A stretch of 64,000 nucleotides of DNA from Natronomonas sp. (GTDB taxonomy: Archaea; Halobacteriota; Halobacteria; Halobacteriales; Haloarculaceae). The notes under the pieces are model-generated. The model was not told where the DNA came from. It saw only the letters and a list, made by a program, of their open reading frames with translations, and ran no database searches. Every line of letters begins with the position of its first letter. Positions within the stretch are counted from its first letter, which is position 1. The stretch is from contig NZ_JBLGBY010000001.1 of assembly GCF_047616845.1 (NCBI RefSeq), forward strand, positions 18,631-82,630, in the 5' to 3' direction. A program made the translations under genes and the position numbers. Below, one piece after another: positions 27,354-37,862 of the stretch.

Positions 27354-28814
<1,461 letters not shown>

Positions 28815-28817
28815 CGG

Positions 28818-29324
28818 CTACTCGTCGGTCAGAATCTCCGAAGATTCCATGTGCTCACGCGAGAGCTCCACGTAGCGTTGGCCTGCATAGGCCCACGGCG
28901 AGTCCTCGACCTCCTTGATCTTCTCCGCCGGCGTGCCGGCATAGAGGGTGTTCGGCTCGATTTCGCTGTCTTCCGTGACGAGGCTGTTGGCACCGACCAT
29001 CGCCTCTTCGCCGATGGTCGAGCGGTCGAGAACGGTCGCGCTCATGCCGACAAGGGCGCGTTCCTCGACGGTCGCGTTGTGGACGATTGCAGTGTGGCCG
29101 ACCGTCGCGTACGGGCCGATCTGGGCACCCTCATGGAGCACGGCGTTGTCCTGGACGTTTGAGCCCTCTTCGAGCCGGATGTTCCCGTGGTCGCCACGAA
29201 TCGTCACGTTCGGCCAGACGCTTGCGTCCTTCTCGATGGTCACATCGCCGATGACGACTGCTGTGGGGTCAACGTACGCATCCTCGTGGACGTCCGGTTC
29301 GATGCCGTCGAAACTGCGGAGCAT
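28818..29324 (-). CDS. Gamma carbonic anhydrase family (hexapeptide repeat) protein
   Basis: IRGD, SNVQDNAVLH, VGHTAIVH and AGTPA motifs. Confidence 0.9.
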   Translation of the reverse strand: MLRSFDGIEPDVHEDAYVDPTAVVIGDVTIEKDASVWPNVTIRGDHGNIRLEEGSNVQDNAVLHEGAQIGPYATVGHTAIVHNATVEERALVGMSATVLDRSTIGEEAMVGANSLVTEDSEIEPNTLYAGTPAEKIKEVEDSPWAYAGQRYVELSREHMESSEILTDE

Positions 29325-29654
29325 ATCGGACACTCCGGAGGTGGCGTGTTAAACGTACGGTCGGCGGTGGACGGTCGACCGCAAGGATGAATATTTGTCA
29401 ACTTCCGAACCGCGCGCGAGCCGCAAAACTGGTTGTTTCTCCACTCATAGGGCGAAATCATCTATCACACGATTATTTAAGCAGGGTATGCACGGGCTCT
29501 GGCACTGTAGCATACAAGGACGGCCGAAGAGATATTAGGCATTTACGTCGTGCGGTTTCGACGATTCGGCCGGATAGCACGTCCTCTGAATACCCGTCCA
29601 ACATCTGTTTCAAAGACAGCTTTAAATACCTGGAACGCGCTTGCATCGATTGCA

Positions 29655-29720
29655 ATGACACAGCACGAGGATACGTCGCCTTCGGCGGCGGATCGAGTTC
29701 TTCCAGGGCACGCTAGATAG
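29655..29720 (+). CDS. 21-aa upstream ORF overlapping the leuA frame (MTQHEDTSPSAADRVLPGHAR)
   Basis: ATG about 27 nt after TTTAAATA (29621-29628), the spacing of a leaderless start; stop TAG at 29718-29720. Confidence 0.55.
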   Translation: MTQHEDTSPSAADRVLPGHAR

Positions 29721-30870
29721 TACCTCGGAGATAAGCGAGGCCCGAATTTTCGATACGACGCTGCGCGACGGCGAACAGTCACCGCGAACTTCGTTCAGTT
29801 ACGAGGATAAACGCGAGATAGCCGCCATCCTGGATGACATGGGAACACACGTCATCGAGGCCGGCTTCCCCGTGAACTCCGACGCGGAGTTCGAAGCGGT
29901 ACAGGACATCGCCGACGCGACATCCACCACGGTCTGCGGGCTCGCCCGCGTGGTGGAGAAGGACATCGACGCCGCGCTGGATTCCGGCGTCGAGATGGTG
30001 CACGTCTTCGCGTCCACCAGCGATGTCCAGCTGCAGGATTCGATGCACGCCACACGTCAGGAGGCGCTCGACCGGTCGGTAGCGGCCGTCGAGCGCGTCA
30101 AAGACGCCGGCGTTACCTGCATGTACTCGCCGATGGACGCCACGCGCACCGATGAATCGTTCCTGATCGACGTCATCGAGGCCGTCTCCGACGCCGGGAC
30201 GGACTGGATAAACATTCCCGACACCTGTGGGGTCGCAACGCCACGACGGTTCTACGACATGGTCGAGAACGTCTGTGCGCACACGGACGCCAACGTCGAC
30301 GTCCACACCCACGACGACTTCGGACTGGCCTCCGCCAACGCCCTTTCGGGCTTCGAGGCGGGCGCCGCCCAATCGCAGGTGTCCGTCAACGGCATCGGCG
30401 AACGCGCCGGCAACGCGGCCTACGAAGAGGTCGTCATGGCGCTTGAGTCGCTGTACGACGTCGACACGGGCATCAAAACCGAACGCATCACGGAGTTGGC
30501 CCGGCTCGTCGAGGAGAAAAGCGACATCCCGGTTCCGGCGAACAAGCCGGTCGTCGGCGACAACGCGTTCTCCCACGAATCCGGCATCCACGCCGCCGGC
30601 GTCATCGAGAACGCCGACACGTTCGAACCTGGCGTGATGACCCCGGAGATGGTCGGTGCGACGCGTGAACTGGTGCTCGGAAAACACACCGGCACGCACT
30701 CGGTACGAGAGCGGCTGGAAGACGCCGGTTTCGACCCGACCGACGCGGAAGTCCGTGAGGTGACCCGCATGGTGAAAGACCGCGGCGCGCAAAAGGAGAA
30801 GGTCACCTTCGAGCGGCTCAAGGAGTTTGCCCGCGAGGTGGGCGTCCGACGCGAGGAGGTTCGCGCATAG
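29659..30870 (+). CDS. leuA: 2-isopropylmalate/citramalate synthase family enzyme without canonical start codon and without C-terminal regulatory domain
   Basis: Open frame 29659-30870 with DTTLRDGEQ (29752-29778), HTHDD, GIGERAGN and HESGIH. First ATG (29839) lies after the catalytic motif. Confidence 0.88.
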   Translation, partial: HSTRIRRLRRRIEFFQGTLDSTSEISEARIFDTTLRDGEQSPRTSFSYEDKREIAAILDDMGTHVIEAGFPVNSDAEFEAVQDIADATSTTVCGLARVVEKDIDAALDSGVEMVHVFASTSDVQLQDSMHATRQEALDRSVAAVERVKDAGVTCMYSPMDATRTDESFLIDVIEAVSDAGTDWINIPDTCGVATPRRFYDMVENVCAHTDANVDVHTHDDFGLASANALSGFEAGAAQSQVSVNGIGERAGNAAYEEVVMALESLYDVDTGIKTERITELARLVEEKSDIPVPANKPVVGDNAFSHESGIHAAGVIENADTFEPGVMTPEMVGATRELVLGKHTGTHSVRERLEDAGFDPTDAEVREVTRMVKDRGAQKEKVTFERLKEFAREVGVRREEVRA

Positions 30871-30999
30871 GAATGTCCACCGCGGACGGCTTTCATCCAC
30901 GACAGCGACGGGTGAACGGCGGCATCGACGGACGGGCACGGAGCAACGCTTGCCCAACGCGGAACGCTTATGATCGTCCACTGCGGTATTATCGACGTG

Positions 31000-31074
31000 A
31001 TGAGGGACGTGACCGCTGGCACTCGAACGCCCCCGCGTTCGCCCAGCATCGCGATTATTGTAGGGGCTGTCTAG
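31000..31074 (+). CDS. Putative Ile/Val-rich leader peptide of the ilvB operon (MRDVTAGTRTPPRSPSIAIIVGAV)
   Basis: ATG about 27 nt after a TTATGA TATA-like box; ends ATC GCG ATT ATT GTA GGG GCT GTC TAG. Confidence 0.6.
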   Translation: MRDVTAGTRTPPRSPSIAIIVGAV

Positions 31075-31082
31075 CCCCTACA
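31059..31082 (+). promoter_or_regulatory. Hairpin over leader-ORF stop codon (attenuator-like)
   Basis: TGTAGGGGCT-GTCT-AGCCCCTACA, perfect 10-bp stem, followed by pyrimidine-rich TTCTCTTC. Confidence 0.55.
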
Positions 31083-31195
31083 CAACCGTTCTCTTCGTTG
31101 CAGTTCGCATCGCTTTCAGACAGTTTCACGGACAGAATAATGTACACACGAGACACCAATCGACGGTATCGCACACACGACGGAGGTGCGTCGGC

Positions 31196-32941
31196 ATGAG
31201 CGACGCGCCACAACAGACGCCCCAGGAGGCCGACAGTGCCGAAGCGGGGCCCACGGACATCGAGACGGGCGCTGACGCGGTCGTTCGCGCGCTGGAAAAC
31301 GCCGGCGTCGAACACCTCTTCGGCGTGCAGGGTGGGGCTATCATGCCTGTTTACGACGCCCTGTATCACTCGGATATGACGCACATCACGATGGCCCACG
31401 AGCAGGGTGCCGCCCACGCCGCCGACGCATACGGCATCGTCAGCGGCGAGCCGGGCATCTGTATGGCCACCTCCGGGCCGGGCGCGACGAACCTCGTTAC
31501 CGGGCTGGCCGACTCGAACATGGATTCCGACCCCGTAGTCGCGTTGACCGGCCAGGTGCCGACGGATTTCGTCGGCAGCGACGCCTTCCAGGAGACGGAC
31601 ACCATCGGCGTTACGACGCCAATCACGAAGGCGAACTTCTTCGCCGACGACCCCGAATCGGTCGGCACGGACGTCGGCACGGCCTTCGCGCTGGCGAAGC
31701 GCGGCCGACAGGGCCCGACGCTCGTCGACCTCCCGAAGGACGTAACGAAGGGTGAGGCAAGCGACGACCCCGGCGCCCCCGAGACCCCCGCGACGTACCA
31801 CCCGCCGGAGACGGCCGAACCCGAAGCGGTGACCGAAGCCGCCGACGTCCTCGCGGCGGCCGACAAGCCGATCATCCTCGCCGGCGGCGGCGTCATCAAA
31901 GCCGAAGCCAGCGACGAGATTCGTGCCTTCGCGAAAGAACACGAGATTCCGGTCGTCACGACGATGCCCGGCATCGGCGCGTTCCCGGAAGACCACGAAC
32001 TCGCCTTGGAGATGGCTGGCATGCACGGCACCGGCTACGCCAACATGGCCATCACGATGACCGACTGCATGCTGGCGGTCGGCACCCGATTCGACGACCG
32101 CCTGACTGGCGGCGTCGAGACGTTCGCACCCGACGCGGAGATCATTCACGTCGAAATCGACCCGCCGGAGGTCTCGAAGAACGTCGAGGCCGACTACCCG
32201 CTCATCGGCGACGCGAAAGCCGTGATGGAGCAGCTGGAGACCGCGATGCCGCGGTCGCCGGCCGCCGACACCTGGCGCTCGCAGACTCAGCAGTGGAAAA
32301 AAGAGTATCCGATGGATTATGCGGCGCCGGAAGACGAGCCGGTCAAACCGCAGTACGTCGTCGAGGCTTTCGACAACGCGACGGCCGACGACGCCATCGT
32401 CACGACCGGCGTCGGCCAACACCAGATGTGGGCCTGCCAGTACTGGACGTACAAGGAGCCCCGGACGTGGGTCTCCTCACACGGCCTCGGCGCGATGGGC
32501 TACGGCGTGCCCGCCACCATCGGCGCGAAGCTGGCGGCGCCTGACAAGGACGTCGTCTGCTTTGACGGCGACGGCTCTTTCCTGATGACGTGTCAGGGCC
32601 TCTCCGTGGCAGTGCGTGAGAACCTCGACATCACCATCGTCGTGTTGAACAACGCGGCTATCGGCATGGTTCGACAGTGGCAGGACGCCTTCTTCGGCGA
32701 GCGCCACATGGCCTCGGAATACCCCTGGATTCCGGATTTCGACACGCTCGCAGAGGCGTTCGGAGCCCGCGGCTTCCGAATTGACACCTACGACGAGGTC
32801 GAAGAGGTCGTTGAGGAAGCCATCGCGTACGACGGCCCGAGCATCGTCGACGCACACATCGACCCCGGTGAGAACGTCTATCCGATGGTGCCGAGCGGCG
32901 GCGACAACGGCATGTTCGCCCTCTCGGAGGAGCAGCTATGA
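31196..32941 (+). CDS. ilvB: Acetolactate synthase large subunit
   Basis: HEQGAAH, TSGPGATN, GVGQHQMW and GDGSF...NN TPP motif. Confidence 0.96.
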   Translation: MSDAPQQTPQEADSAEAGPTDIETGADAVVRALENAGVEHLFGVQGGAIMPVYDALYHSDMTHITMAHEQGAAHAADAYGIVSGEPGICMATSGPGATNLVTGLADSNMDSDPVVALTGQVPTDFVGSDAFQETDTIGVTTPITKANFFADDPESVGTDVGTAFALAKRGRQGPTLVDLPKDVTKGEASDDPGAPETPATYHPPETAEPEAVTEAADVLAAADKPIILAGGGVIKAEASDEIRAFAKEHEIPVVTTMPGIGAFPEDHELALEMAGMHGTGYANMAITMTDCMLAVGTRFDDRLTGGVETFAPDAEIIHVEIDPPEVSKNVEADYPLIGDAKAVMEQLETAMPRSPAADTWRSQTQQWKKEYPMDYAAPEDEPVKPQYVVEAFDNATADDAIVTTGVGQHQMWACQYWTYKEPRTWVSSHGLGAMGYGVPATIGAKLAAPDKDVVCFDGDGSFLMTCQGLSVAVRENLDITIVVLNNAAIGMVRQWQDAFFGERHMASEYPWIPDFDTLAEAFGARGFRIDTYDEVEEVVEEAIAYDGPSIVDAHIDPGENVYPMVPSGGDNGMFALSEEQL

Positions 32942-33570
32942 GCCGCAATCAGAACACCCACCGGAACGGGCTGGAAGGCCCCGAGCCGGAGGAACGGCAG
33001 CGACCTGTCGGCCGACGCAACTCTCAAGGTATCCGCGTCGACCCAGAGGTCGAGGCCGAACACGAGCCACGACGCACCATTATCTCCGCGTACGTGGCCG
33101 ACGAGCCGGGCGTGCTCGCACGCGTCTCCGGGCTGTTCCACCGACGGCAGTTCAACATCGAGTCGCTGACGGTCGGCCCGACGCAGAACGAGGGCTACTC
33201 CCGTATCACCCTCGTCATCGAGGAGCCCGAACCCGGTATCGAGCAGGCAAAAAAGCAGCTGAACAAGGTGCTTCCGGTCGTCCACGTTCGGGAACTCGAT
33301 CCCGACCCCGTCGCCCGCGAGCTTGTCATCCTGAAGGTCAACGGCGACGAGCCGGACAAGGTGCAGGCCATCACGGAGATGTACGACGGTGAGACGCTCG
33401 ACGCCGGCCCGCGGACGATTTCGGTGCAGATCACCGGCGACGAGAGCAAGATCGACGACGCTATCGACGCCTACGAACAGTTCGGCATTCGGGAGATCGC
33501 CCGCACCGGACAGGCGGCACTGGCCCGTGGCGAAGAGGAAACCGCACGCGTTGACGAGACACACACATGA
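32938..33570 (+). CDS. ilvN: Acetolactate synthase small subunit
   Basis: [24 protein letters not shown] domain and EIARTG. Confidence 0.94.
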
Positions 33571-34559
33571 GTGCAGACATCTACTACGACGACGACGCTG
33601 ACAGCACCGTACTCAACGACACGACCGTGGCCGTACTCGGCTACGGCAGCCAGGGCCACGCCCACGCACAGAACCTCGATGAATCCGGCGTGGACGTGGT
33701 TGTTGGACTCCGAGAGGAGTCGTCCTCCCGCTCGGCCGCGAAGGCCGACGGCCTCGACGTGGAGACACCGCGAAACGCCGCGGAACAGGCCGACGTCGTG
33801 AGCGTGCTGGTGCCCGACACCGTCCAGCCTACCGTTTACGAGGAAATCGAAAGCGTCCTCACGCCGGGTGATACGCTGCAGTTCGCCCACGGATTCAACA
33901 TCCACTACGGCCAGATCGAGCCGAACGAGGACATCAACGTCACGATGGTCGCGCCGAAATCGCCCGGCCATCTCGTCCGCCGAAATTACGAGAACGACGA
34001 GGGCACGCCCGGCCTCCTGGCAGTGTATCAGGACGCCGCCGGCGACGCCCACGATGTCGGGTTGGCGTACGCGAAAGCCATCGGCTGCACGCGCGCCGGC
34101 GTCGTCGAGACGTCGTTCCGCGAGGAGACCGAAACCGACCTCTTCGGCGAGCAGGCCGTCCTCTGTGGCGGCGTCACCAGCCTCGTCAAGCAGGGCTACG
34201 AGACGCTCGTCGATGCGGGCTACAGCCCCGAAATGGCATATTTCGAGTGTCTGAACGAGCTGAAACTCATCGTCGACCTGATGTACGAAGGCGGGCTCGG
34301 CGAAATGTGGGACTCCGTTTCCGACACCGCCGAATACGGCGGGCTGGTTCGCGGCGACGAAGTCGTCGACGAGCACGCCCGCGAGAACATGGAGGAAGTC
34401 CTGGAGGCCGTCCAGGACGGCACGTTCGCACGCGAGTGGATCAACGAGAATCAGGCTGGCCGACCAAGCTACAAGCAGTTGCGACAAGCCGAGAAGAACC
34501 ACGAGATCGAGGACGTGGGCGAAGACCTGCGTTCGCTGTTCGCGTGGGGTGAAGAATGA
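33567..34559 (+). CDS. ilvC: Ketol-acid reductoisomerase
   Basis: [14 protein letters not shown] and ETDLFGEQ motifs. Confidence 0.96.
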
Positions 34560-34792
34560 CAGACGAAACCGACAAACAGACACTGGGAGAGATGAGCCAC
34601 ACCAACCCCTACACGGGGAAGGTGTTCGGCGATACACAGACGTACAGCCGCGGGACGACCATCGCCGCAGACGGCGGCGAGGCGGAGGCCGTTCCCGAGG
34701 AGACCGACACACTGGGCGAGATGAGCCATACCCCACCGAGGGACGCCAAGAGCGCCCAACGCGCCTATGACCGTGGTGTAGACGATGAGTGA
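34556..34792 (+). CDS. Small acidic protein with internal duplication
   Basis: Overlaps ilvC stop and leuC start; TLGEMSHT occurs twice. Confidence 0.7.
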
Positions 34793-36209
34793 GGGGACGC
34801 TGTACGACACGGTCTGGGACACCCACAAGGTGACGACGCTGCCGAACGGCCAAGACCAGCTGTTCGTCGGCCTGCATCTCATCCACGAGGTGACGAGCCC
34901 GCAGGCGTTCGGCATGCTCCGGGAGCGAGATATCGATGTCGCACGGCCCGACCTGACGCATGCGACCGTCGACCACATCGTCCCGACGGACGACCAATCG
35001 CGCCCGCTGGACAACGAGGCGGCCGAGGAGATGATGGCCGAACTCGAGGAGAACGTCCGCGATGCGGGCATCGAACTGGACGACCCGACGACGGGCGACC
35101 AGGGTATCGTTCACGTCATCGGGCCGGAGCAGGGGCTCACCCAGCCCGGCATGACCATCGTCTGTGGTGACAGCCACACCTCGACGCACGGTGCCTTCGG
35201 CGCTCTGGCGTTCGGCATCGGCACCTCACAGATTCGCGACGTGCTGGCGACCCAGACCATCGCGATGGAGAAAAAGAAGGTGCGCAAAATCGAGGTCACC
35301 GGCGAACTCGGTGACGGCGTCACCGCAAAGGACGTCATCCTGACCATCATCCGTCGGCTCGGCACCGACGGCGGCGTCGGCTACATCTACGAGTACGCCG
35401 GCGAGGCCATCGAGAGCCTCGGAATGGAGGGTCGGATGTCCATCTGTAACATGTCCATCGAGGGCGGCGCCCGTGCGGGCTACGTGAATCCCGACGAGAC
35501 CACCTACGAGTGGCTGCGGGAGACGGACGCCTTCGATGACGACCCCGAGCGCTTCGAGCGGCTGAAACCGTACTGGGAGTCCATCCGCTCCGAGGACGAC
35601 GCCGAGTACGACGACGTCGTCACAATTGACGGCTCGGCAATCGAGCCGGTCGTGACCTGGGGAACGACCCCTGGCCAGGGCATCGGTATCTCCGAGGAGA
35701 TTCCGGCCCCCGAAGCCCTGCCCGAGGACAAACAAGACACCGCACGACGCGCCCAAGAGCACATGCGCGTCGAGCCCGGCGAGACGATGGACGGGTACGA
35801 CATCGACGTCGCCTTCCTGGGTTCCTGTACGAACGCGCGGCTGCCCGACCTTCGTGCGGCCGCAGAGATCGTCGATGGCCGCCAGGTCGACGACTCCGTC
35901 CGCGCGATGGTCGTCCCCGGCAGCCAGCGCGTCAAGGCCGCCGCCGAAGCGGAGAGCCTCGACGAGGTGTTCACCGAAGCCGGCTTTGATTGGCGCGAGG
36001 CCGGCTGTTCGATGTGTCTCGGCATGAACGACGACCAACTCGAGGGCGACGAGGCGTGTGCCTCCTCCTCGAACCGGAACTTCGTCGGCCGACAGGGCTC
36101 GAAGGACGGCCGAACCGTCCTGATGAGCCCCGAGATGGTCGCTGCGGCGGCGGTCACGGGTGAAGTGACCGACGTGCGTGACCTGCCGACGGCGGAGGTG
36201 GAAGCATGA
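34785..36209 (+). CDS. leuC: 3-isopropylmalate dehydratase large subunit
   Basis: [20 protein letters not shown] and GCSMCLGMN motifs. Confidence 0.96.
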
Positions 36210-36892
36210 CGAGCGAGGAACGGAGTTCCTCGAGTAGCCGAGCGGAGAGCGAAGCGACCCGCGAGTCCGAGGAAATCCCGAGCGTCGACTACGTCGAGGG
36301 CTCGGCCATCCCCATCCGCGGGAACGACATCGACACCGACCAGATCATCCCCGCGCGATTCATGAAGGTCGTTACGTTCGACGGCCTCGGGGAGTTCGCG
36401 TTCTTCGACCAGCGATTTGACGACGAGGACAACCCGAAAGACCACCCGTTCAACGAAGAGCAGTACCAGGACGCGTCGGTCATGGTGGTCAACTCCAACT
36501 TCGGCTGTGGCTCCTCGCGCGAGCACGCCCCGCAGGCGCTCGTCCGCTGGGGTATCGACGCCATCATCGGCGAGTCGTTCGCCGAGATCTTCGCGGGCAA
36601 CTGCCTCGCACTCGGCGTCCCAACGATTACCGCCGACACGGAGACCATCCAGGAGTTGCAGGGCTACGTCGAAAAGTACCCCGATGCGGAGGTCGAAATC
36701 GACGTCGAAGCCGAGACGGTGTCCTACGACGACCGGGTCATCGAGGTCGACGTCGACGAAGCCCAACGGAAGGCACTCGTCGAAGGTATCTGGGATACGA
36801 CGGCCCTGATGAAGTCCAACCGGGAGGCCATCGAAGAGACGGCGGACTCGCTGCCGTACATCGACTCCAAGACGGGCCACGCTGATGACTGA
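36206..36892 (+). CDS. leuD: 3-isopropylmalate dehydratase small subunit with N-terminal repeat-derived insert
   Basis: [24 protein letters not shown] and SFAEIF motifs. Confidence 0.95.
36212..36265 (+). repeat. 54-bp palindromic hairpin element in frame within leuD
   Basis: AG-CGAGGAAC-GGA-GTTCCTCG followed by GCGGA-GAGCGAAGCGA-CCCGC-GAG; encodes [18 protein letters not shown]. Confidence 0.78.
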
Positions 36893-37862
36893 GACGATAC
36901 TGGTCGTCCCGGGCGACGGCATCGGCCAGGAGGTCGTCCCCGCTGCCGTCGACGTGCTCGAAGCGGTCGCTGACTTCGAGTTCGTCGAGGCAGCGGCTGG
37001 CGACCACGTCAAGACGGAGACGGGCGAAGCGCTGCCCGAGGAGACGTATCGCCTCGCGACCGAGGCGGACGCGACGCTTTTCGGCGCGGCCGGCGAATCG
37101 GCCGCTGACGTCATCCTGCCGCTTCGTGAAGCCGTCGGCTCCTTCGCGAACGTTCGGCCGGCGCGAGCCTATCCCGGCGTCGACGCTGTTCGACCCGACA
37201 CCGACCTCGTCTTCATCCGCGAGAACACCGAGGGCGTCTACTCCGGCATCGAATCGGAAATCGCCGACGGCGTCACGACGTTGACGCGTGTCATCACCGA
37301 GAAGGCCTCCCGACGTATCGCCGAATACGGCTTCGAATACGCCGAGGAGAACGGCTACGACGACGTGACGCTGGCGCACAAGGCCAACGTGATGCGAGTC
37401 ACGGACGGGCAGTTCCTCGATGCGGCCCGTGCTGTCGGTGACGACCGCAGCGCCGAGTACGACGAGGCGTTGATGGACGCACTGGCGATGCATCTCGTGC
37501 TCCGGCCCGAGGAGTACGGCGTCGTCATCTGCCCGAACCTCGCTGGCGACATGCTTTCAGACCTCGCGGCGGGCCTGGTCGGCGGTCTCGGACTGTTGCC
37601 CAGCGCCAACGTCGGCGCGGAGAACGCGCTGTTCGAGCCCGTTCACGGCTCGGCACCCGACATCGCCGGCGAGGGCATCGCCAACCCCGCAGCGACGATT
37701 CTGTCGGCGGCGATGCTACTGGAGCATCTCGGCTACGACGAGGAAGCGGCGACCGTGCGAACCGCAGTCGAAGGCGTGCTCGCGGACGGCCCACGAACGC
37801 CTGACCTCGGTGGGTCGGCCTCGACGGAGGACGTCACCGCTGCGATTGTCGATCGGCTCTAA
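36885..37862 (+). CDS. leuB: 3-isopropylmalate dehydrogenase
   Basis: PGDGIG, RENTEG and [12 protein letters not shown] motifs. Confidence 0.93.

Follow-up and report, generated by a model that had tools for sequence, protein, structure and literature searches.

How is leuA translated when its reading frame offers no start codon ahead of the catalytic motif? The question is raised by a 64,000-nucleotide (nt) stretch of Natronomonas sp. DNA (contig NZ_JBLGBY010000001.1, positions 18,631 to 82,630; hereafter the window), which carries a predicted gene for 2-isopropylmalate synthase (LeuA). The leuA frame is closed upstream by a TGA at 29656-58, and its first in-frame ATG, GTG or TTG lies only at 29839, after the DTTLRDGEQ catalytic motif at 29752. 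A TATA-like box (TTTAAATA) is present at 29621-29628, and an ATG at 29655-57 opens an upstream open reading frame (uORF; MTQHEDTSPSAADRVLPGHAR) of 21 codons, which stops at TAG 29718-20 and overlaps leuA one base out of frame, the leuA frame lying one base ahead. Its sole branched-chain codons are GTT CTT at 29697-29702. A sequence-only reading of the window had described the missing start, the out-of-frame uORF and the lone GTT CTT, all of which were borne out, and had explained them by a leucine/valine-responsive +1 switch. We found that the start-less layout of leuA with its uORF is real and conserved over the phylum, and we regard a ribosomal frameshift of some kind at leuA as very likely. 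A model in which a P-site tRNA slips +1 while a Leu codon waits in the A site, so that leucine supply would be sensed, is probable on comparative sequence evidence.

Halobacteria searches covered 61 genomes at the family level and 121 at the class level, and the 5' regions of 148 orthologues from nine families were read; ten hits were left out (G061, G068, G075 and G164, plus G059, G023, G036, G041, G010 and G056 from fragmented assemblies). A uORF with Arg-(Val/Phe)-Leu and an early stop was present at all 148 loci, and the out-of-frame ATG for which the sequence-only reading had proposed an alignment was likewise conserved throughout. Each locus thus has the hallmarks of a programmed +1 shift, namely an upstream frame holding the only start and a conserved +1 overlap. 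At 146 loci the uORF frame reads CG[AG] GTT CT[TC], preceded by an open ATG at a distance of 27-54 nt and closed 4-10 codons from GTT; the remaining two, from family f3, have the same uORF with CGT TTT TTG. Of the stretch expected to be invariant, CG-R-GTT-CT held and the whole of GAGTTCTTCCA did not. All 146 of these loci have an ATG 27-57 nt above GTT CT[TC] that shares the uORF frame, as against 8 with one in the leuA frame and 2 with one in the third. In 43 of the 146, some in-frame ATG, GTG or TTG occurs within 150 nt of the motif, at scattered positions that for the most part coincide with the TATA box or lie above it. Termination of the uORF comes within 10 codons at 48/48 full-length loci, compared with 6.5% of control positions, and the Leu codon at the 148 loci is CTT in 142, CTC in 4 and TTG in 2. 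Among the matches listed in a pattern scan of named genomes, which selects for the motif itself (at least 80 loci), 78 precede leuA, 77 of them with the uORF ATG and one ending at a contig edge; two bacterial matches were unrelated and not leuA. Because the phase between uORF and leuA is the same at 148/148 loci, many of them from assemblies of one or two contigs, we exclude an assembly error. Rfam gave no family match (E up to 1) over 28800-31400, and no 'leuA-Halobacteria' motif was found in the main text of PMC5737381.

Codon tables in both frames showed that the coding constraint switches frame at the predicted slip site. On its 5' side, the substitutions have little or no effect when read in the uORF frame but are disruptive in the leuA frame (CGA/CGG 139/7, GAT/GGT/GAA/AGT, CTT/CTC 142/4), the CGA/CGG and CTT/CTC exchanges being silent only in the former, while on the 3' side the codons for Gly, Thr and Leu show silent variation when read in the leuA frame. 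Re-pairing was then compared at 198 sites (148 from Halobacteria and 50 from other families), taking the anticodons that standard decoding implies. If the tRNA on NUU moves by +1, pairs 2 and 3 of the anticodon persist at 198/198 sites, whereas a +1 slip of the Leu-tRNA fails at 41 (CTA, TTA, TTG and CTC variants) and a -2 slip at 35. No constraint is seen on the codon that follows Leu (Pro, Arg, His, Gln, Cys or stop); the codon before it varies among Val, Phe and Leu by lineage, and the next is invariably Leu. Since NUU re-pairing is universal and the codon after Leu is free, Leu would be the waiting A-site codon and the preceding codon the slip site. The sequence-only reading had placed the slip on CUU itself, in the manner of prfB, which is probably wrong given these counts. 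Its leucine/valine response survives in part: the Leu codon is always kept, and valine sensing is unsupported because the slip codon changes with lineage. Genes for tRNA-Val(GAC) and tRNA-Leu(GAG) were called in this genome, and 11 of 2079 uORF codons before the site are Leu codons.

The element extends beyond Halobacteria. The phylum search gave best hits in 88 genomes of other families, of which 79 were read and nine left out (some cut at the 5' end). An out-of-frame ATG leading to NTT, a Leu codon and an early stop was found at 50 of the 79 loci, spanning 13 families (50/51 loci of those families), with the codon pairs TTT-TTA (22), CTT-CTT (11), CTT-TTA (7), TTT-CTT (5), TTT-CTA (2), GTT-CTA (2) and CTT-CTC (1); some of these families have two or three Leu codons in a row. 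Five families (28 loci) have ordinary in-frame leuA starts, and two incidental NTT-Leu matches in one of them were excluded from the count. When the search was repeated blind to Leu, anchored on positions -10 to -1 only with a loose threshold, the anchor was placed in 58 of the 79 loci, 46 times on NTT, and Leu followed in 45 of these 46 as against 7 of 226 coding controls. The Phe codon is TTC in 13/13 cases before Phe, where TTT would lose the Leu, and TTT in 27/31 before Tyr.

A second conserved element, which like the isoleucine twin described below lies beyond the sequence-only reading, stands immediately upstream. All 92 distinct 33-nt segments above GTT reach folding energies of -10 kcal/mol or below. 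In a test with a matched control that set the 3' arm at -12 to -7 and allowed five registers, since loop lengths differ, six of six hairpin pairs form in 88/92 segments versus 2.4% of 6440 coding-region controls, counts that are not independent because the segments come from kin; changes on both sides of the helix, that is, covariation, occur at four pair positions. H. volcanii ribosome footprints of 27 nt, whose 3' edge is 15-16 nt away from the P site (reported in the part of PMC7261190 covered here), would leave about 11-12 protected bases upstream, which would place the 3' arm at the mRNA exit with GUU in the P site. Refolding upstream hairpins promote +1 and oppose -1 shifts in yeast and 70S extracts, according to sections of PMC3639245 and PMC6321510. 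A G-rich run resembling a Shine-Dalgarno (SD) sequence, at -10 to -6 with a spacing of 5 nt to the slip codon, shows its best pairing with the 3' end of 16S rRNA, whose motif was found in 5/5 genomes; the end of the 16S gene was not found in the window's own assembly. Other families mostly lack the hairpin and share the G-rich run. The hairpin, or in other families the SD-like run, probably biases the slip forward.

The Leu codon is exchanged for Ile in a paralogue that we call cimA-like. Hidden Markov models (HMMs) do not separate leuA from cimA, and the name would follow from an isoleucine auxotrophy noted in PMC8305020, in the part covered, for the H. volcanii paralogue HVO_0644. A uORF with an Ile-codon site is present at 29 of 30 Halobacteria cimA-like loci (the best 30 of 37 hits), this genome included, as GAA ATT C in 24 (with the hairpin at -12 to -7) and TTT ATT C in 5. 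The copy of this genome (G000:C7:54664-54741, locus L370) has the uORF, hairpin and slip layout, with its GAA ATT C site at C7:54721. A +1 move from GAA to AAA keeps pairs 2 and 3 just as GUU to UUC does, so that the identity of the slip codon tracks the sensor codon's first base. In picked genomes of families with the leuA element, Ile stands at the sensor place in 14/14 cimA loci, as TTT or ATT followed by ATT or ATC, and the uORFs start with ATG (12) or GTG (2). Among 20 second-best hits of the phylum search, six have a cimA-type device and 14 do not. In a quick, unrooted tree, 24 Leu-site and 22 Ile-site genes are split by one branch (SH-aLRT 100). Scanning this genome for other such genes gave five hits, of which only leuA was convincing and from which cimA was missed owing to its in-frame GTG; a blind, hairpin-based scan that asked for a TATA box, an ATG, the hairpin and a long +1 frame recovered leuA and cimA together with two weak hits, and gave three weak hits for the other frame. 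Two cimA-like loci stand apart. L370 also has, 12-15 codons further on, an in-frame GTG and another TTT ATT site, a remnant that lacks an ATG, which gives the impression of two coexisting generations of the device, and L389 (G097), the sole locus of the 30 without an Ile site within 70 codons, has an in-frame ATG 21 codons before the motif.

From these results we propose that ribosomes would start at the out-of-frame ATG 29655 and advance until GUU (Val) is in the P site and CUU (Leu) in the A site. With charged tRNA-Leu scarce, the peptidyl-tRNA-Val would slip one base to UUC and enter the LeuA frame, giving a predicted product of 404 residues with the junction ...DRV|FQGTL...; a second shift at residue 293 in the shifted translation is an artefact of the slip rule being applied everywhere. 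With leucine plentiful, CUU would be decoded in frame and translation would terminate six codons later. Lying where the mRNA leaves the paused ribosome, the hairpin 3' arm (in other families the SD-like run) would push the slip forward, and cimA would be gated by the same device with an Ile codon as sensor. LeuA would accordingly be made mainly under leucine shortage. The TATA spacing of the leuA uORF ATGs peaks at 32-34 nt, compared with 29-30 nt for ordinary genes of this genome as judged from a crude, over-called gene set; this ATG thus lies about 3 nt further from the TATA box, which makes a leader of a few bases more likely than none. The leaderless start assumed by the sequence-only reading is therefore right in its TATA box and probably not in its spacing. 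Coordinates are collected in Table 1.

Table 1. Features of the leuA region in the window, with the basis of each assignment.
Feature	Position	Strand	Basis or remark
TATA-box-like element	29621..29628	+	Sequence; TATA-like match 26-35 nt above the uORF ATG in 129/146 loci; putative function
uORF, 21 codons + TAG	29655..29720	+	First 15 codons = predicted LeuA N-terminus
TGA closing the leuA frame upstream	29656..29658	+	Sequence
6-bp hairpin, predicted 5' stimulator	29674..29690 (arms 29674-79 + 29685-90)	+	3' arm at -12..-7 from the slip codon
G-rich SD-like run GGCGG within the hairpin 3' arm	29687..29691	+	Putative role; same place in other families
CGA (Arg), predicted E-site codon	29694..29696	+	CGA 139, CGG 7 of 146
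GTT-C, predicted slip site, peptidyl-tRNA-Val(GAC) GUU -> UUC	29697..29700	+	GTT in 146/146; re-pairing table
CTT (Leu), predicted A-site sensor codon	29700..29702	+	Leu in 148/148 Halobacteria loci; Ile there in cimA
Post-shift leuA frame (389 codons + TAG; product predicted at 404 aa)	29701..30870	+	HMGL-like + HCS_D2
ilvB, ilvN, ilvC, small ORF, leuC, leuD, leuB-like	31196..37862	+	Downstream context backing the LeuA assignment

The start-codon problem has been noted before. Pfeiffer and Dyall-Smith (2021; PMC8305020, cited for the sections covered here) left open whether H. volcanii leuA2 (HVO_1510), which belongs to the same orthologue set, starts at CTG or ATG, noted an out-of-frame ATG that is conserved and would need ribosomal slippage, and speculated that the gene is translated only under leucine shortage. 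Their DNA comparison was confined to Haloferax, and those sections name no slip site, direction, sensor codon, hairpin, wider spread or cimA twin. Supplement S2.f lists H. volcanii LeuA peptides upstream of the first in-frame Met, and an 18-residue in-frame peptide at positions 43-61 is unexplainedly missing from proteomics. By the paper's numbering and the named Haloferax loci, this peptide spans the slip site, so its absence is as a shifted junction predicts. In supplement table 5D of PMC10117724, as far as covered, the leaderless ribosome-profiling (Ribo-seq) ORF sORFribo45 lies in the 5' region of HVO_0644 and contains TGT GAA ATT C, so that the cimA uORF is among the ORFs listed there as translated in Haloferax; the main text of that paper does not discuss it. 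Term searches did not find the element in the main text and one supplement of PMC7261190 or in PMC13759103, each as far as covered, nor 'frameshift' or 'leuA' in the main text of PMC11456600. No paper describing the mechanism was found, only PMC8305020 bearing on the question in a search that lay outside closed journals and bioRxiv supplements; within the literature searched, the idea is in print only as speculation. As a separate observation, table S1 of PMC4983044 (row 1467) records an internal HVO_1510 RNA 5' end about 60 nt past the predicted slip site, inside the DTT codons, which could reflect processing or a stall-linked cut.

Several observations weigh against the leucine-sensing slip. 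On the transcript side, PMC8305020 gives a mapped H. volcanii transcription start 2-4 nt downstream of the ATG, about which its authors were uncertain, and the differential RNA sequencing table of PMC4983044 has only one internal and two antisense starts for the leuA gene, none near the ATG; the leuA uORF was also not found in the searched part of the PMC10117724 Ribo-seq supplement. Outside Halobacteria, families f14, f15 and f23 have an in-frame ATG between site and motif at 13/13 loci, and the annotated start of M. mazei MM_1284 is an in-frame ATG that precedes the motif in the covered part of the PMC11456600 supplement, so that the shift may be optional there. In the Leu-blind search, 13 of the 58 anchored loci lacked NTT-Leu, 12 of these anchors having fallen elsewhere under the loose threshold. 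The 79-nt fold of the window 5' end is unexceptional on its own (z -0.6), and the case for the hairpin hence rests on conservation. Between the SD-like run and the slip codon the spacing is 5 nt, compared with 3 in prfB, and the run is weaker in haloarchaeal cimA. Outside Halobacteria, cimA would slip from UUU or AUU to UUA with a poor third pair, making conserved P-site re-pairing weaker there than at the 198 leuA sites. Finally, the Leu/Ile swap falls on one branch and thus counts as one event, not many.

What other explanations would account for the layout? The best of them, though unlikely, is that the Leu-tRNA itself slips from the P site, by +1 (RV-L-QGTL) or -2 (RV-L-F-QGTL), or that the shift is a fixed low-rate throttle with no leucine sensing. 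At the window site CUU re-pairs well on UUC in both directions, as do Leu codons at 157/198 (+1) and 163/198 (-2) sites overall, and at cimA ATT-C a P-site Ile-tRNA could re-pair on TTC. However, Leu-tRNA slippage breaks down at the CTA, TTA, TTG and CTC sites counted above, the free codon after Leu offers it no conserved pause, and a 5' hairpin opposes backward slips (PMC3639245, in the sections covered), while a fixed throttle leaves the match of Leu and Ile to the pathway product unexplained. It is less probable still that LeuA synthesis begins within the leuA frame, either at a codon other than AUG or through re-initiation past the uORF stop, with the uORF as a modulating leader peptide. 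An in-frame CTG start was proposed for Haloferax in the covered part of PMC8305020; the SD-like run, an Ile codon near the uORF stop in 106/146 loci and the downstream in-frame ATGs of f14, f15 and f23 would also fit. Yet no candidate non-AUG start is conserved: the ATC at 29692 that the sequence-only reading had offered is ATC in 72, GTC in 62 and AAC in 12 of 146, its other candidate, ATA 29671, sits in the variable hairpin base, and both are rejected. At the place of the Haloferax CTG region the window carries a leuA-frame stop, the leuA frame shows protein-level conservation of Gly-Thr-Leu upstream of the uORF stop, and re-initiation past the stop would be expected to raise LeuA at abundant leucine, the wrong sign.

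Mending of the frame in RNA, whether the hairpin is spliced out as an archaeal intron, the transcript is edited or the polymerase slips, is very improbable, as is transcriptional attenuation by the uORF. A conserved hairpin does exist, and several non-halophile sites have runs of six or more T. Nevertheless, RNA contigs from 4/4 runs (four studies) cross the site on the locus of a Haloferax relative with no gap or joint, although rare forms are lost from such contigs and DNA may be among them; inspection of the folds by eye showed no evident bulge-helix-bulge shape, GTTCTTC has no homopolymer, and attenuation supplies no start codon. A sequencing indel, which the sequence-only reading had also allowed for, or a decayed pseudogene might be suspected in an 86.5% complete assembly of 94 contigs and is refuted by conservation, with one phase at 148/148 Halobacteria loci and at 77 of the 78 named leuA loci among the matches listed (the other ending at a contig edge), besides LeuA protein detected in H. 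volcanii (PMC8305020, in the part covered).

Set beside known systems, the proposed leucine-sensing slip has relatives but no exact counterpart. In the autoregulatory +1 frameshift of prfB (release factor 2), P-site CUU re-pairs on UUY, the release factor senses an A-site stop, and an internal SD lies 3 nt before the P-site codon. The leuA device would share with it a short 0-frame ORF, a +1 P-site slip, competition at a slow A-site codon, a putative 5' SD-type stimulator and negative feedback. The prfB site is CUUUGA (PMC6321510, in the part covered). Unlike prfB, leuA has in the A site not a stop but a sense codon for the pathway end product (Ile in cimA); its P codon is CTT at only 19/198 sites and Leu in the P site fails at 41; its slipping tRNA would be Val, Phe, Leu or Glu by lineage; it is archaeal; and in Halobacteria a hairpin would replace or mask the SD. 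As described in parts of PMC3639245 and PMC8211752, respectively, yeast Ty1 and starvation-induced hungry-codon shifts likewise have the P-site tRNA slipping at a moment when the A site holds a sense codon that is poorly served. Such shifts either fix a ratio or represent errors, whereas the leuA codon matches the product of the gated pathway and is kept across the phylum. The leuA device would work like prfB or Ty1 but belongs to neither, because its waiting codon is a sense codon for the pathway end product. Antizyme is made by a polyamine-sensing +1 shift at a stop codon in eukaryotes, with the only start in ORF1 and no aminoacyl-tRNA sensing; a metabolite-responsive +1 shift and a short ORF1 with the only start would be common to both, but the leuA device is proposed to sense aminoacyl-tRNA at a sense codon, in archaea. 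In bacterial leu/ilv attenuation, cognate codons of a leader peptide read tRNA charging and control a biosynthetic gene. The uORF codon is proposed to do the same, but its output would be a frame change into an enzyme without its own start, and it uses a single sensor codon: the window uORF has one Leu codon, not a tandem, and the enzyme lacks the independent start that attenuation pairs with a terminator/antiterminator. Among archaea, Saccharolobus fucA1 also has a programmed frameshift, the only cellular archaeal one named in the covered part of the 2021 review PMC8211752, which does not contain 'leuA' or 'isopropylmalate'; it differs in its -1 direction, heptamer, strain-limited occurrence and lack of a known sensing role.

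The product assignment rests on an HMGL-like barrel with DTTLRDGEQ in an ilv/leu gene context. LeuA/CimA-family scores fall below the curated NCBIfam cut-offs (best 462 bits versus 517), and domain search found no PF08502, the C-terminal LeuA allosteric domain, in this protein; we therefore describe it as a predicted 2-isopropylmalate synthase of a short form, supported by barrel and context and not by cut-off or PF08502. The f3 LeuA (L287 of G063; L133 and L134) retains the allosteric domain, and the f3 loci have the TTT-TTG site form, a weakened hairpin and a second, stronger hairpin upstream. Its branching beside all other Halobacteria LeuAs suggests that the frameshift is older than the loss of the domain. 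LeuA has a Leu content of 4.3% (48 orthologues) versus 8.8% in the crude gene set of this genome, and its Leu codons (L001-L048) have moved from CTC/CTT towards CTG (0.50 versus 0.26 in that set); together these possibly reflect avoidance of the tRNA read by the sensor codon. The Leu-poor composition and the missing allosteric domain also weigh in favour of the leucine-sensing slip. The 54 nt past the slip site (29703-29756 and orthologues) have a GC content of 0.53, compared with 0.66 in the remaining gene, and are rich in rare codons such as TTA and ACA, which is consistent with selection for little downstream structure or for an early uORF stop. At individual loci, L137 (G028) is the sole one with G after CTT, which yields an in-frame TTG nine bases past the SD-like run, and this lineage may have gained an ordinary start; L295, L296 and L410 have very short uORFs with the stop right after the sensor codon (five to six codons in L296 and L410). 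Downstream in the window, a 325-nt gap (30871-31195) separates leuA from ilvB, which is preceded by an SD-like GGAGGTG, and a 78-codon ORF with a repeated TLGEMSHT motif lies between ilvC and leuC (34556-34792).

A +1 shift that senses the pathway product would supply a mechanism by which archaea adjust amino-acid synthesis at the level of translation. We lean, with some reserve, towards a phylum-wide family of hungry-codon +1 switches acting as an amino-acid gauge (Leu for leuA, Ile for cimA), which would either predate the leuA/cimA split or have been copied, would have passed from SD-driven to hairpin-driven in Halobacteria, and may have allowed loss of the allosteric domain. If the model is true, product-sensing +1 shifts would operate in two core enzymes in Halobacteria and 13 other families, a published annotation puzzle would be settled, and the N-termini of many LeuA and CimA entries would be corrected. 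The element would also provide a small, genetically encoded leucine/isoleucine sensor for Haloferax and Methanosarcina, and would stand as an archaeal counterpart of attenuation and as a natural, endogenous hairpin-stimulated +1 shift.

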